Below are positions 30,877-58,976 of a DNA stretch of 64,000 nt, in pieces. The stretch is from Eledone cirrhosa (lineage: Eukaryota). The translations under genes were made by a program, and so were the position numbers. The stretch's first letter is position 1. Each line of letters opens with the position of its first letter. Below the pieces are notes generated by a model, which saw only the letters and a list, made by a program, of their open reading frames with translations, ran no database searches and was not told the DNA's origin. The DNA is taken from NCBI GenBank assembly GCA_964016885.1, contig OZ024741.1, forward strand, positions 383,718,001 through 383,782,000, in the 5' to 3' direction.

Positions 30877-31631
30877 TACTATAGAGTAAAGCATGTCCAG
30901 AGAATTATTTGATAATATATATACATCATCTCTACTCCCAATCAGCATAATTAACCACACAAAAAATCAATTAGACCAGGCTATAAGAATAAAAGGCACC
31001 TATGAAGAAACAGTAAATAAATACGCCACAGCAGCGTCTTCGCGTGCAACCGCTATAGAATATTTACCCAACATTTCAACAGCACGTGGAAATTAATTAA
31101 ATATACGGTCAACCGTACATAATTAGGTAAAAATTAATGTTAGAAATGCTTATATACATACCAGGACTAAATCACTAAATCCCGACCCTAGGGTTTCGCT
31201 TACTTTTGAGATACCTTATTCAGGTTAATACTCGAGTTTTAGAGCTCTTCAGGGGATAAACTCGCTAGGACATATTATTTTCAGAAGTGGCCCCTGCCAA
31301 ACACGAATTCAAAATGGTTGAGAACTGTGACGTGGCAGTGGTCAAGTCAGGAAGGGTGTGATTGGTTGCTTACGGCGAGTGGGTTGGTGGCTAGAAAGCG
31401 CAGCCCAATATCGCCCAAATTTTTATCTCAACCTTATGGGAGATTATTAAATATAAATATTTACACATACACCAATTAAACAAAGTCACAGATATATATG
31501 TGTTTTGGCAACTGTTCACGATGTGGCTCAATTATTTGCTCTGATTATTTAATTTATTAATTCTCCATTGAGCCCCAAAACACATATATACCTGTGACAT
31601 TGTTTAATTGGTGTATGTGTAAATATTTATA
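30877..31631 (-). mobile_element. ~690 nt HHR unit family, copy A (main arm 30877-31532, inverted arm 31533-31631)
   Basis: Highly similar to 58405-58976 but starts at a different point; related to 32774-34160; between TA tracts. Confidence 0.85.
31179..31257 (-). ncRNA. Type I hammerhead ribozyme motif
   Basis: ATCCC-CTGAAGA-GCT...AGC-GAAAC-CCTAGG-GTC-GGGAT; complete core, perfect stem I, palindromic stem III. Confidence 0.88.
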
Positions 31632-32035
31632 CATTATATATACATATATATGTATAATATATATATATATAAAATACATAATGTATACATACGATATAAT
31701 ATATATATATATATATATATATATATATATATATATATATATATATATATATATACAGTTCAAGAGTAACCAATCTTAAAGAGAGAGATGGAGATAGGAG
31801 AGGAGATAGGAGAGGAGAGATTGGTGAATTAGTTAGAAGCCAAAGCGTAAAGGCATGTGCTCAATGTGCAATATGCAGTAGAAAGCAGCTAGGTGGCTGG
31901 GTTCATGCAGAAGTTAGGCGCGCAGAGCTGGAAATATTCATTAGTTAAGCAAAACAAGACCACAAATTTCACAAGGAAGACATTATTAAAAGATTGTCAA
32001 CATATTTTAGTTTGATGTAAGGAATGTAGAGAATA

Positions 32036-32468
32036 ATAATAATAATATTAATAACAATAATGTCCGTTTACAATTGTTTCGCTACTCCATATAATATGTC
32101 TGGATCAGATGACTATATATCATTATTGATCTCACACAATGCAGCCTCTCACACAATGCAGATCTCACACAATGCAGATCTCACACAATGCAACCTCGAC
32201 AGATGAATACTGCTTGATTATGGCTGACAATTGATACAATTAGGACACCATAGTGAAATACCAATATATGGAACATTACATTATGTAACATTCTCTCCTT
32301 ATTTTAATTTATATTCCTTTGAAGTTCCGATGAGCTGCTCTGTTTTTAAATATGTTAATTATTTTCAACTGAACCAGATCAATAATGATATATACTCATC
32401 TGATCCAGGAATATTATATGGAGTAGCGAAACAATTGTAAACGGACATTATTATTATTAATAGTATTA
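32036..32468 (+). mobile_element. HHR element with short inverted arm (32036-32132 mirrors 32376-32468) in (AAT)n
   Basis: Reverse-complement arms; four ~16 bp CTCACACAATGCA repeats at the junction. Confidence 0.7.
32324..32442 (+). ncRNA. Hammerhead-like motif with CCGATGA core and long stem II loop
   Basis: GTT-CCGATGA-GCTGCTCTGT...ATGGAGTAGC-GAAAC-AATT-GTA-AAC; 10 bp stem II. Confidence 0.6.
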
Positions 32469-54996: not shown

Positions 54997-57470
54997 GTTT
55001 GCTCGATTGTTCGGGGGGGGGGGGAGTGGTGGGTCAGAGACGGTAGTGGACTTCAGTCCCTACCTCGACGGCTTGCCACGCCTCTGGACGGCCGACGCTG
55101 AGTGCTGCGAAAGGCCGATAACTTCAACCGAAATTCAGGATTCTCTTGTCGGCTGCGCGAGGCGCAAGTCACCCAGTTTGAATGGTCTACCCTACGAGCT
55201 TTACGAAAATATACCACACTTGTTCTCCGATTTCCTCGAAGCGCTCTACTGCAATTCGCAGAAGAACGGGAGTATTCCCAGTTCTGTGAGCCGGGGCGTA
55301 GTGACGCTGATAAAGAAAGACGAGAACAATAAGGATACATTAGATAACTTCAGGCCCATAACTCTGCTCAATACAGAGTTTAAGATGTTGGCCAAGGTGT
55401 TAGCGAAGAGGCTGGCGCTTGGCGTCGAGGATTTGGTTGGGGGGGGCGCAAACTTGCGCAATCCCGACCAGGTCCATAGACGATAACCTCGACTTCATGC
55501 GATACTTCATAGAGATGGTAGAGTGTAAACCTGGCTTCGGTGCGGATCTGATCAATTTAGATCAATCGAAAGCATTCGATAGGGTCCACCATCGGTACCT
55601 GGAGGCTATCCCCAAGGCAGCTGGCTTCGGCCCCGTCTTCAGAAGCTCGATCGCTGCAATGGACAGCGGTATCTGCTCGGTGGTCAAAGTTAAGGGCAAC
55701 CTCTCGGAACCGTTTCAGATCTCTCAATCGGTCGGTCAAGGGTGCCCTCTCTCCTGCCTTCTGTACGTATTGACTCTCGAGCCTTTACTGTGGAAGCTGG
55801 AGCTGTTGCGGAGTATCCCTCTCGAACCGAGACGCGGAAAGGCTGTGTCAGCTTATGCGGACGAAATCACTGTGATTGTGTTGGACACCTTGGAAATCGA
55901 GGTAGTCGGCACCTTATTGGAAGAATATTAAAGGTTGACGGGAGCAAAACTTAACCCTGAAAAGTAGTTGGGCTTGCAACTCGGCACCTGAAGAGGCAAG
56001 TTCATGCCGTCCAACAGTGTCGCTGGGCGCTGGACGGACGGACCGGTAAAGTTTCTCGGGGTTTGGTTCGGGCCAGATCTCCAGAAGGATAATAATTGGG
56101 ACGATGTGACGGGCAGGATAGCCAATCTCACCCAAAAATGGGCAGCGAGGAAGCTATCCCTGAAAGGTCGGGTGGAGGTGGCAAATGTGTACATCGCGTT
56201 CGTCATCGACTACCGCCTAAACGTCGTGCCTTGCCCCGTCCGCCCCTCGCCAACTTGGAACGGCGCCTCTTCCCATTTTTGTGGAGGGGACAGGTTCCGT
56301 TGGTGAGGCGGTCCATCTGTTGAAGCACCCTATACGCGGAGGGCTGGGTATGCCGTGGCTAATGATGCTCAGACATGGGCTGAGGCTCGGTCATCTCCAG
56401 ATATTCTGCCTAAACGGTGAACATGATGGTCGCCGTTTGTCGGACGGGTCATTCCGCAGCTCGTCTCTTTGACTGAGCTGCAATCCTGGGTCAAGAAGAG
56501 ACCGAGACTGGCTGAGTGGCATCTGGAATGTTGCCAGGCACTCACTGCCCTCTACCAGGCGGGAAATGCGGTCAGTGGAACTTCCACTCTCGAGTTCTAT
56601 AGAGGATTAGTGGTGGGCAATTGCGATGTCGCACACGGAGAGATTCTGGGCGTCGACAAAACCGAACTAACCAGTCTGTTCCGGAGGACTTTCGAGCCGG
56701 GGATGATGGATAACTTCCAAAAATCCCTCGCTTGGCAGTGCTACCGGGGGGGGGGCACTGCCGGTTTGAGATGAACTCTACAGGTACGGAAGTGCTGTCA
56801 GATGGACTAGCCTGAGATGCGCGCAGTGCGACGAGACCGTTCTGCACGCACTCATCCAGTGTCCATGCATTACTGACTTGTGGTGTTATGTCGAACAGCT
56901 GTTGTCGTGTGTAGAACGGATCCGGCTATAGTCCATATCCATAGTGAAGATCGACCCGCCGCCTTCTTTTGTCCAGGAAGGGCAGGCAATTTTCCTCTGT
57001 CTTGTTGCAGTAGTGAAAGATGTATGGTGGACCAGGTTGAAAGGACTGAAGACAGACCCTTTTCTCTTCAGCCAATCACTCATCAACTTTTTCAAGTTTC
57101 ACTTGGAAAGGAAGTTGAGGGTGGATAGAGAAGGCTGCCCCCCCCCCCCCCCCCACCAGTACATTTTTGCTGAAAGGTGGGTGGCGAGAATGGCCCGTGT
57201 GAGCTTACTTTGATCATGCGCCTGTAGGCTGGTGAATTTTAAGGAGAGGGGTGCCCATTCCGGGTGCTCACGAAGCGTTGAGAGGTTCAGGATTGGTGGG
57301 GCACCTGAATCAACCCTGGATGGTTATCCCCCCTATTGGTGAATTTTCATTGTTGTATTTTTCTTGTTTATTGTTATTGTTTTTCTATTTTTTACTCGAA
57401 TTTTGTGTAAAACCCCCACTGTCTTCTTCTATTGTATTGTCCCCTATATGTTGGCTCTTTTGGCCAGTAA
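54997..57470 (+). mobile_element. 5'-truncated, degraded Tx1/L1-type LINE related to 3724-7592
   Basis: DNFRPITLLN, DQSKAFDRV, QGCPLS, YADE; several stops and frameshifts; similar 3' end. Confidence 0.9.
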
Positions 57471-58404
57471 ATCAGCTAGCCAGCAAATGTCAATATAATA
57501 CTGAATATTAGCGAAAAGTAGAATATTTATGCTGACTTAATGAGGAGTCACAAAGACTATACCTTTATATTTGTACCTGAGATCATTAGGACACTTGGAT
57601 ATGATACTAGTTCAGTACAAATCTTGCGAAGCTGGGCTTCACAAAACCGGAAAGGAAAGGAGCCTATCTCAGAAACGGTCAAAGGAAACTAACTATCCCT
57701 ATTTCTATTGCTGGTATTAACTGCCTGTCAGAAAGAGGATGGATATGATCTCAGCGCTCTCACGACAGGATCAAATACTGGGTCTTTAATTATTCTGCCA
57801 ATCTACCGGCCCCAGAATGGTACTTTAGCTATCGAACTCGAATGGATAATAGGAGAATATTCCTATTGCAGTATTCGAACTTGGAATGCAGAGACCCGGA
57901 ATAGATATCGACGCTTTAACAACTCTGCCAATTCACCGCAGAAATTAAACCAAGCCCCCACATATTGAAATACATATATATACATATAGAATACACTTCA
58001 TCGCTGAATTCATTGTTTCTGGCGTGGAAGCGTATGAACACATGACATCCTCGTGAGTATGCTTGCAAATAAAGTATATGTGCGTTACGTTTTATACACC
58101 ATCCTTTATAAGTTGATTCTCAACTCTATTTTTAACATTGGTTTCGACAATTAGAGCACGTTCGACAATTCAAGCACATTTTTTCTTATTGACTTTTGTT
58201 GATTATATAAAATGTTTGTATTCCAGATATTTCGGTTCTCCCAACACCAGATCACTCTGAACCACAGTGTACACAGGTTTATGATTCTCTTTGCAACACC
58301 ACTAACAAAAGCAGTATTTCATCATAGACATCTACTATGATCATCTGACTACCAGAAGTACAATACGTCCAGGGTTATATATATATATATATATATATAT
58401 ACAC

Positions 58405-58976
58405 TACACCAATTAAACAAAGTCACAGGTATATATGTGTTTTGGCAACTATTCACGATGTGGCTCAATGAAGAATTAATAAATTAAACAATCAGAGCAA
58501 AATACTATATAGTAAAGCATGTCCAGAGAATTATTTGATAATATATATACATCATCTCTACTCCCAATCAGCATAATTAACCACACAAAAAATCAATTAG
58601 ACCAGGCTATAAGAATAAAAGGCACCTTTGAAGAAACAGTAAATAAATACGCCACAGCAGCGTCTTCGCGTGCAACCGCTATAGAATATTTACCCAACAT
58701 TTCCACAGCACGTGGAAATTAATTAAATATACGGTCAACAATACATAATTAGGTAAAATTAAAGTTAGAAATGCTTATATACATACCAGGATTAAATCAC
58801 TAAATCCCGACCCATGGGTTTCGCTCACTTTTGAGATACCTTATTAAGGATGAATCTCGAGTTTAGAGCTCTTCAGGGGACAAACTCGCTAGGACAGATT
58901 ATTTTTCGAAGTGGCCCCCGCCAAACACGAATTCAAAATGGTTGAGAACTGTGACGTGGCAGTGGTCAAGTCAGGA
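58405..58976 (-). mobile_element. ~690 nt HHR unit family, copy C (different permutation from copy A)
   Basis: Begins with the sequence that ends copy A, then runs into the sequence that begins copy A; abuts (TA)n. Confidence 0.85.
58804..58881 (-). ncRNA. Type I hammerhead ribozyme motif
   Basis: GTCCC-CTGAAGA-GCTC...GAGC-GAAAC-CCATGG-GTC-GGGAT. Confidence 0.88.

Follow-up and report, generated by a model that had tools for sequence, protein, structure and literature searches.

Hammerhead ribozyme (HHR) repeats were analysed in a 64,000-nucleotide (nt) stretch of the Eledone cirrhosa genome (assembly GCA_964016885.1, contig OZ024741.1, positions 383,718,001 to 383,782,000; this whole stretch is the window, to which all coordinates refer) and in further insertions retrieved from the same 3.0-Gb genome, which is rich in (TA)n. 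The insertions consist of a single arm or of two arms arranged head to head, and it was found that the 3' ends of the arms lie at two fixed sites of the repeat unit and that two-armed insertions almost always have one arm ending at site 1 and the other at site 2 (1+2). This pairing was observed in 71 of the 72 scorable two-armed insertions of subfamilies A and B (P = 1.5e-20 compared to the ceiling of 0.5 for independent choice), and the near-strict one-site-per-arm rule holds in autonomous and non-autonomous families.

Three copies (A, B and C) lie in the region covered by a preliminary description of the window (30877-58976), which had reported them as one HHR-bearing family. This was borne out: copies A and C are 95% identical, A and B about 72%, and a descriptor scan identified a full type I HHR in copy A (31179-31257, minus strand, cut between 31184 and 31183), in the left arm (33157-33236, minus) and right arm (33803-33882, plus, cut after 33876) of copy B and in copy C (58804-58881, minus), in each case on the strand opposite to that previously described. 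The descriptor gave five matches in the window, one of them in another family, compared to 0-2 in 30 shuffles. The HHR core and stems are conserved among the copies and stem III is palindromic in all of them, with one pair more in A than in B; an Rfam search recognised no hammerhead in these copies, and fold z-scores were weak (-2.2 for the unit with 20 shuffles, near 0 for isolated HHRs).

With position 1 set at the base after the HHR cut, the A unit is 689 nt long (copy A plus 33 nt taken from copy C), and copy C does, as first described, pass through the end of A and a 33-nt linker into the start of A. The arms of copy B have periods of 657 nt (left) and 649 nt (right, with an 8-nt deletion) and are longer than one unit (about 685 and 708 nt, respectively), which fits the earlier figures of 657+24 and 649+57 nt within the blur of the TA flanks. 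The RNA sense of copies A and C is the minus strand and the GC content of the copy region is about 33%. The longest stop-free frame of the unit is 78 codons and arms run into the previous unit, so the unit is not part of a longer coding element. The most conserved stretch between A and B, unit 430-520 (31350-31445), contains a CCAAT-like box and is a candidate internal promoter. With copy C as query, 4226 first-look candidates were obtained genome-wide, of which the best 40 were scored; these are not copy numbers. The copies are a real family of a known class, the non-long terminal repeat (non-LTR) retrozymes or non-autonomous Penelope elements.

Copy A consists of a long arm (30876-31532, minus; unit 341 to 308, 657 nt) whose 3' end is site 1 against (TA)n, and of a short inverted arm (31535-31631, plus; unit 309-421), overlooked in the preliminary description, whose 3' end is site 2 against (TA)n; copy A is therefore, like B, a two-armed insertion. 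In copy B the left arm (32769-33453, minus) ends at site 2 and the right arm (33454-34161, plus) at site 1, while copy C is a single arm (58386-58979, minus; unit 518 to about 413-425) ending at site 2. It had been proposed that each copy begins at a different AT-rich register, but the five outer ends in the window fall on two homologous registers only (site 1 at 30876 and 34161; site 2 at 31631, about 32770 and about 58390-58400).

Ends were then mapped onto the unit in 113 distinct A and 60 B insertions, obtained from six DNA searches and fetched stretches (two of the 60 B loci look like one duplicated insertion). The two sites, about 100-115 nt apart, accounted for 238 of 265 arm 3' ends. 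In A, 153 of 172 arm ends were at the sites (92 at site 1, unit 308; 61 at site 2, unit 422; 19 elsewhere), and in B 85 of 93 (52 at site 1, unit 293; 33 at site 2, unit 391; 8 elsewhere). The sites are homologous between A and B; each ends in TAT and continues into (TA)n, the position of site 2 is blurred across about 15 nt, and target-site duplications (TSDs) are unreadable inside (TA)n. Several off-site ends were severed by later insertions and some are TA-flanked at other positions. Single-armed insertions end at both sites (59 and 16). L100 and L238 each have two site-1 ends facing tail to tail across a short TA tract, which was read as two separate insertions into that tract.

Each unit contains 32-33 TAT triplets, plus longer TA runs that do not serve as main end sites and are predicted to be paired in the folded RNA; the predicted unpaired fraction is 0.86-0.87 at the B sites and, less clearly, 0.40 and 0.50 at the A sites. 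The 5' ends of the arms are variable in position. With 3' ends fixed at two sites and 5' ends variable, the apparent circular permutation is accounted for by 5' truncation on a head-to-tail template.

Among 59 two-armed A insertions, 44 were 1+2, one was 1+1, none was 2+2 and 14 had an unscorable end; 27 of the 33 two-armed B insertions were 1+2 and 6 were unscorable. In a held-out search with an anchor placed between the sites, 11 new loci were obtained, seven of them two-armed and all seven 1+2. Sister arms differ by about 4%, and they share rare variants at 25% in A (112 of 448) and 18% in B (24 of 132), compared to 1.7% (A) and 1.1% (B) between unrelated copies, which indicates that both arms derive from one template or source. 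When raw distance was used, none of 30 A cases and 3 of 12 B cases placed the sister arm nearest, a test that is uninformative because later mutation dominates, and variant sharing was used instead.

The same anatomy was found in a candidate autonomous partner, a head-to-head Hydra-type Penelope-like element at 43591-50661, with a reverse transcriptase (RT) and, at its C terminus, a GIY-YIG domain. A frameshift and a stop disrupt this copy; its left arm ends at its site 2 and its right arm at site 1, and a hammerhead-like motif with a U4-to-C change lies near 43811-43859 (minus). Its RT as query gave 30142 candidates genome-wide, many with an open 832-codon frame. The 832-codon frame of one copy (L159) has a C-terminal GIY-YIG, a DKT motif, a CxCX5C linker, and CxxC and CxH near its end, all features of the Hydra clade, while RWK reads RWR and the unit, at 4199 nt, exceeds the size of that clade (generally under 3 kb). 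The GIY-YIG match (E = 0.003) was below the Pfam cut-off, Pfam and PDB sequence searches with the intact open reading frame (ORF) gave no recognition, and look-alikes of the protein in an atlas were cnidarian and mollusc proteins with GIY-YIG. The sites of the element are upstream of the ORF, 46 and 211 nt after the hammerhead-like motif. Among 29 retrieved insertions (9 picked as opposite-strand pairs, 20 as plus-strand matches), 26 were two-armed: 24 were 1+2, one ends in a gap and one was ambiguous. A 9-mer is reiterated before the TA tract in 10 of 24 site-1 junctions (one junction was read twice), which looks like abortive re-priming. About 55 nt beyond the TA tracts flanking the element in the window (43480-43530 and 50725-50790) are inverted copies of each other.

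A further HHR element, family D (15745-16460), for which no alignable similarity to A or B was noted, has the same two-armed 1+2 anatomy and a site-1 hairpin. In 30 loci of this family, 20 head-to-head insertions were found, 18 of these being 1+2; in the remaining two the second arm continues beyond site 1 and its end at site 2 is unconfirmed.

In A, B and the autonomous element, each site is followed after 3-9 nt by a hairpin of the form N-CUC-xy-loop-y'x'-UW-GAG-N'. In the window the site-1 hairpin is at 33514-33549 (plus), with further copies at 31538-31573 (plus), 32833-32868 (minus) and 58463-58498 (minus); the site-2 hairpin, the same motif with a short loop, is at 33618-33635 (plus), with further copies at 31426-31443 and 33404-33421 (both minus), and the site-1 hairpin of the autonomous element is at 43732-43765 (minus). 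The descriptor gave exactly two sense matches in A, in B and in the 4.2-kb element, and one in the arm of D, compared to shuffle means of 0.06 (A), 0.04 (B), 0.33 (element) and 0 (D); one of the two matches in the element has a single inner pair, and the element has one extra antisense match. The inner pairs vary across families among UG/CA, CA/UG and CC/GG, as does the closing pair among G-C, A-U and U-A, a compensatory pattern; MAFFT failed to align the hairpins across families, and the pairs were read from the descriptor. When the 45 or 32 nt after each A or B site were slid along both strands of the element, the best sense window was the matching site for both site-1 queries and for A site 2. 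The window as a whole contains 19 strict hairpin matches, compared to 0-7 in 20 shuffles, several of them in further repeat families.

Further repeats of the window were noted individually. A 528-nt head-to-tail repeat of at least three units (62251-64000) runs off the window; on its minus strand it carries a CUGAAGA core along with the hairpin motif described above, ends at (TA)n about 40 nt after the hairpin, and is likely another family of the same system and a candidate HHR. Short TA-flanked elements were found at 59040-59720, 43150-43340 and 61317-61410 (all with the hairpin motif; the last looks like a tail-only insertion) and at 61443-61700, and CUGA-GA cores occur in such elements at 59449, 43158 and 61652. 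A small repeat with inverted and direct copies (14949-15709) has CUGAUGA/GAAA cores at 15017, 15048 and 15555. The window also contains two decayed copies of a long interspersed nuclear element (LINE), at 3772-7190 and 54953-57139, with endonuclease, RT and zf-RVT matches; they are 74% alike.

The 5' ends were assessed in length-unbiased samples, anchored just upstream of site 1, of 40 A arms (including the window's two copies) and 28 B arms, two repeat matches having been dropped from the latter. In A the 5' end lay within -5 to +12 of the HHR cut in 13 of 40 arms, or 13 of 31 passages (background 0.032, P = 4e-12), while none of the 28 B arms, or 20 passages, stopped there (A versus B, Fisher P = 4e-4). 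Three A ends are exactly on position 1, both arms end at position 2 with a 19-nt self-complementary overlap in L185 and L197, and L009, L012 and L188 stop at the cut on the second pass. These ends point to linear, self-cleaved RNA templates, including cleaved multimers, for part of the A copies.

An alternative is that all templates are circles and that the A pile-up reflects a transcription start, stalling at RNA structure, or stalling at a junction such as a ligation scar with a 2'-5' bond or a 2'-phosphate. In its favour, arms stop about as often on their second passage as on the first, in small numbers, and the ends scatter from -5 to +12. Three ends on position 1 itself do not fit it, nor does the location of most ends inside stem I, beyond the stall point; B has the same fold and no pile-up, and in no insertion does one arm stop at the cut while its sister passes that junction (only two or three cases, all concordant). 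We regard this alternative as rather unlikely and prefer self-cleaved templates for these A copies.

Other arms cross the cut cleanly, with the junction conserved, and reach 2.5 units in A and 3.1 in B. Among the A insertions 56 of 113, and among the B insertions 29 of 60, have arms longer than one unit; these samples favour long copies, and in the length-unbiased samples the figures are 6 of 40 A and 8 of 28 B arms; with a 2.5-unit copy as query, no longer A array was seen in the best 40 of 4785 candidates. Successive laps share rare variants at 22% and 27%, as often as sister arms do (paired test 8/20, P = 0.38), from which it follows that the monomer was recopied at some recent step; this may have been by a circle, by an end-to-end jump or through young multimer sources made in either way, and in L297 the laps are clearly more divergent. 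After completing a lap, six of eight B arms end within the next 70 nt (P about 5e-4), compared to 1 of 6 in A, a signal that was set aside because the same AT-rich positions also stop first-pass arms. The odds of a circular template for part of the family are about even. Two independent 2.5-unit A insertions (L003:910-2637 and L014:913-2634) cover an identical stretch (unit 646 to 308), and three arms of 1.5 units start at 649-653; together these may mark a fixed RNA 5' end or a source boundary.

Taken together, the results are probably explained by a Penelope-type RT-endonuclease that cleaves (TA)n, both resulting DNA ends then serving as primers on a single RNA, each at one of the fixed sites. 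The enzyme would be the protein of the genome's Hydra-type element, acting as a dimer. In this scheme, which is derived from DNA alone, the 3' ends are set at site 1 or site 2, each ending in TAT, and the hairpin observed 3-9 nt downstream would be a protein-binding element that sets the start. Both complementary DNAs (cDNAs) would be extended upstream, stop at variable points and be joined by short microhomology, giving head-to-head arms, while priming by one end alone would give a single arm. A arms that start at the HHR cut would have been copied from self-cleaved linear RNA, and arms that pass the cut to as many as three units from a recopied monomer, by way of a ligated circle or a jump from its 5' end to a 3' end. 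A broader proposal, which we consider to be evenly balanced, is that a protein dimer is loaded by a two-hairpin RNA address, common to an intact Hydra-type Penelope element and to several hammerhead RNAs that are unrelated, and primes both (TA)n ends on one RNA, with one hairpin for each end. If so, it would account for the head-to-head inversions and one-sided tail of Penelope elements, and the insertions would be a fossil record of germ-line hammerhead cutting, with subfamilies differing in their use of linear and circular templates.

Several points weigh against the explanation by paired priming. One A insertion is a 1+1 pair (L056), one autonomous insertion is ambiguous (L141) and 20 two-armed A or B insertions have an unscorable end, and the insertion samples are top-scoring matches and not random draws. 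Arm pairs in which neither arm lies inside the other numbered 6 of 71, compared to 13 expected by resampling (P = 0.045 in A), a shortage that did not hold up in the length-unbiased samples (4 of 29 compared to 6.6) or in the held-out ones. The hairpin descriptor was composed after inspection of these sequences, the B site-2 query missed its matching site in the anchored scan, and A site 1 is only 40% unpaired in the fold. Alignment of the units to the Hydra-type element was not significant (18 and 64 of 200 shuffles scored as well for A, 44 and 169 for B), and the comparison covered a single autonomous Penelope family of the genome.

The published reading of Penelope inversions and tails, as given in the accessible parts of PMC3846280 and PMC8557442, would have one end prime and the second arm arise as a fold-back or through self-priming, either on cDNA or on an antisense template, with the endonuclease trimming at the other site to leave a one-sided tail. 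It likewise predicts variants common to both arms, 65 of the 71 pairs are nested, and arm centres often have short overlaps or a palindrome. Fold-back, however, requires one arm to be nested in the other, and this fails in the six pairs mentioned above and in 5 of the 7 held-out ones, where L312 is nearly disjoint. Site-2 arms often cross site 1 unstopped while the partner ends there (L188, L037), single-armed insertions end at either site, bases are reiterated at site 1, and both arms end at the HHR cut in L185 and L197. On this evidence fold-back is considered unlikely, a little more so than a stall at the cut.

The preliminary description had the template as a circle or multimer primed at any TA-rich spot, giving true circular permutation. 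Its reverse transcription from a head-to-tail template into (TA)n is upheld by the multi-unit arms, and such priming would also fit the TA adjoining all ends, the B arms that never stop at the cut, their stops soon after one lap and the likeness of laps to that of sister arms. Its variable priming sites are contradicted by the concentration of ends at two sites despite the many TAT triplets and longer TA runs of each unit, by the strict 1+2 pairing and by the 13 of 40 A arms that start at the cut, while the B stops soon after one lap fall on AT-rich stop hot spots and have no counterpart in A. Shared fixed termini, which the preliminary description itself named as refuting its model, were observed for the 3' ends. 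We regard the model as very improbable. An origin of the inverted arms in assembly or fold-back sequencing artefacts is scarcely credible: palindromes in TA-rich DNA are error-prone, and although public contigs (four runs of one study) cover the family none spans the centre of copy B, but the two arms of an insertion are about 4% different from each other and end at distinct sites that are fixed throughout the family, the rule is common to four families, and later insertions resembling short interspersed nuclear elements (SINEs) interrupt single arms.

As far as the accessible text of the cited papers goes, the inverted arms and tails of Penelope elements, the role of hammerheads in vivo and the mover of animal retrozymes are open questions. 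A countable rule, a candidate cis element with compensatory pairs, a candidate partner with many intact ORFs and two sister subfamilies that contrast in their stops at the HHR cut turn each of them into a defined in vitro test, and an internal double start set by hairpins could be relevant to tools for RNA-templated insertion. Neither obligatory site pairing nor this hairpin was found to be reported in the literature searched, which excluded subscription papers and supplements; those of PMC11167929 and PMC8557442 may bear on both.

Like the non-LTR retrozymes described in the available portions of Cervera and de la Pena 2020 (PMC7229834) and of Li et al. (bioRxiv 10.64898/2026.07.22.740005), the latter of which treats retrozymes as Penelope derivatives, the family has a non-coding, low-GC, head-to-tail unit with one type I HHR and thousands of candidate copies, and coexists with Penelope-like elements proposed as mobiliser. 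A circular template has already been published as a hypothesis, with Penelope elements as candidate mobilisers (PMC4209133, PMC7229834). The unit of 657-689 nt is longer than the 150-450 nt of PMC7229834 and falls inside the 51-972 range of Li et al., and in place of long arrays mostly dispersed, often two-armed insertions of 0.3-1.5 units were found, the longest of 3.1 units. For non-LTR retrozymes, those portions of PMC7229834 and Li et al. give no description of insertion ends, of priming sites or of a common cis hairpin; the present family is known from its DNA. Unlike the plant LTR retrozyme, with a type III HHR in its LTRs and a 4-bp TSD, it has a type I HHR, ends in (TA)n and no LTR pair. 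In L1 twin priming, two target ends also prime on one RNA and give an inversion, with the second primer at variable internal spots and arms without overlap, whereas here both sites are fixed and the arms overlap extensively.

With endonuclease-positive Penelope-like elements (PMC8557442, PMC3846280, both as accessible) the family shares partial tandems, an inverted 5'-truncated copy, a (TA)n target, an HHR with palindromic stem III and a tail on one arm. The tail is 98-165 nt here compared to 30-40 there, where it is described as optional and attributed to endonuclease resolution (PMC8557442, which also gives the Hydra motifs and calls HHR function unclear) or to self-priming on an antisense template (PMC3846280), in contrast to the near-strict one-site-per-arm rule observed here. 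An experimental precedent is Poseidon PAc, for which the accessible part of Frangieh et al. 2024 (PMC11167929) reports, in vitro, two internal start sites bounding the tail, cutting and extension of both target strands and a predicted dimer; HHR cleavage was dispensable, RNA reads at the cut were absent, and start sites neither differed between strands nor had target homology. In the present families, by comparison, the sites finish with a TAT that matches (TA)n, show coupling between arms and lie upstream of the ORF, and in one subfamily genomic 5' ends pile up at the HHR cut.

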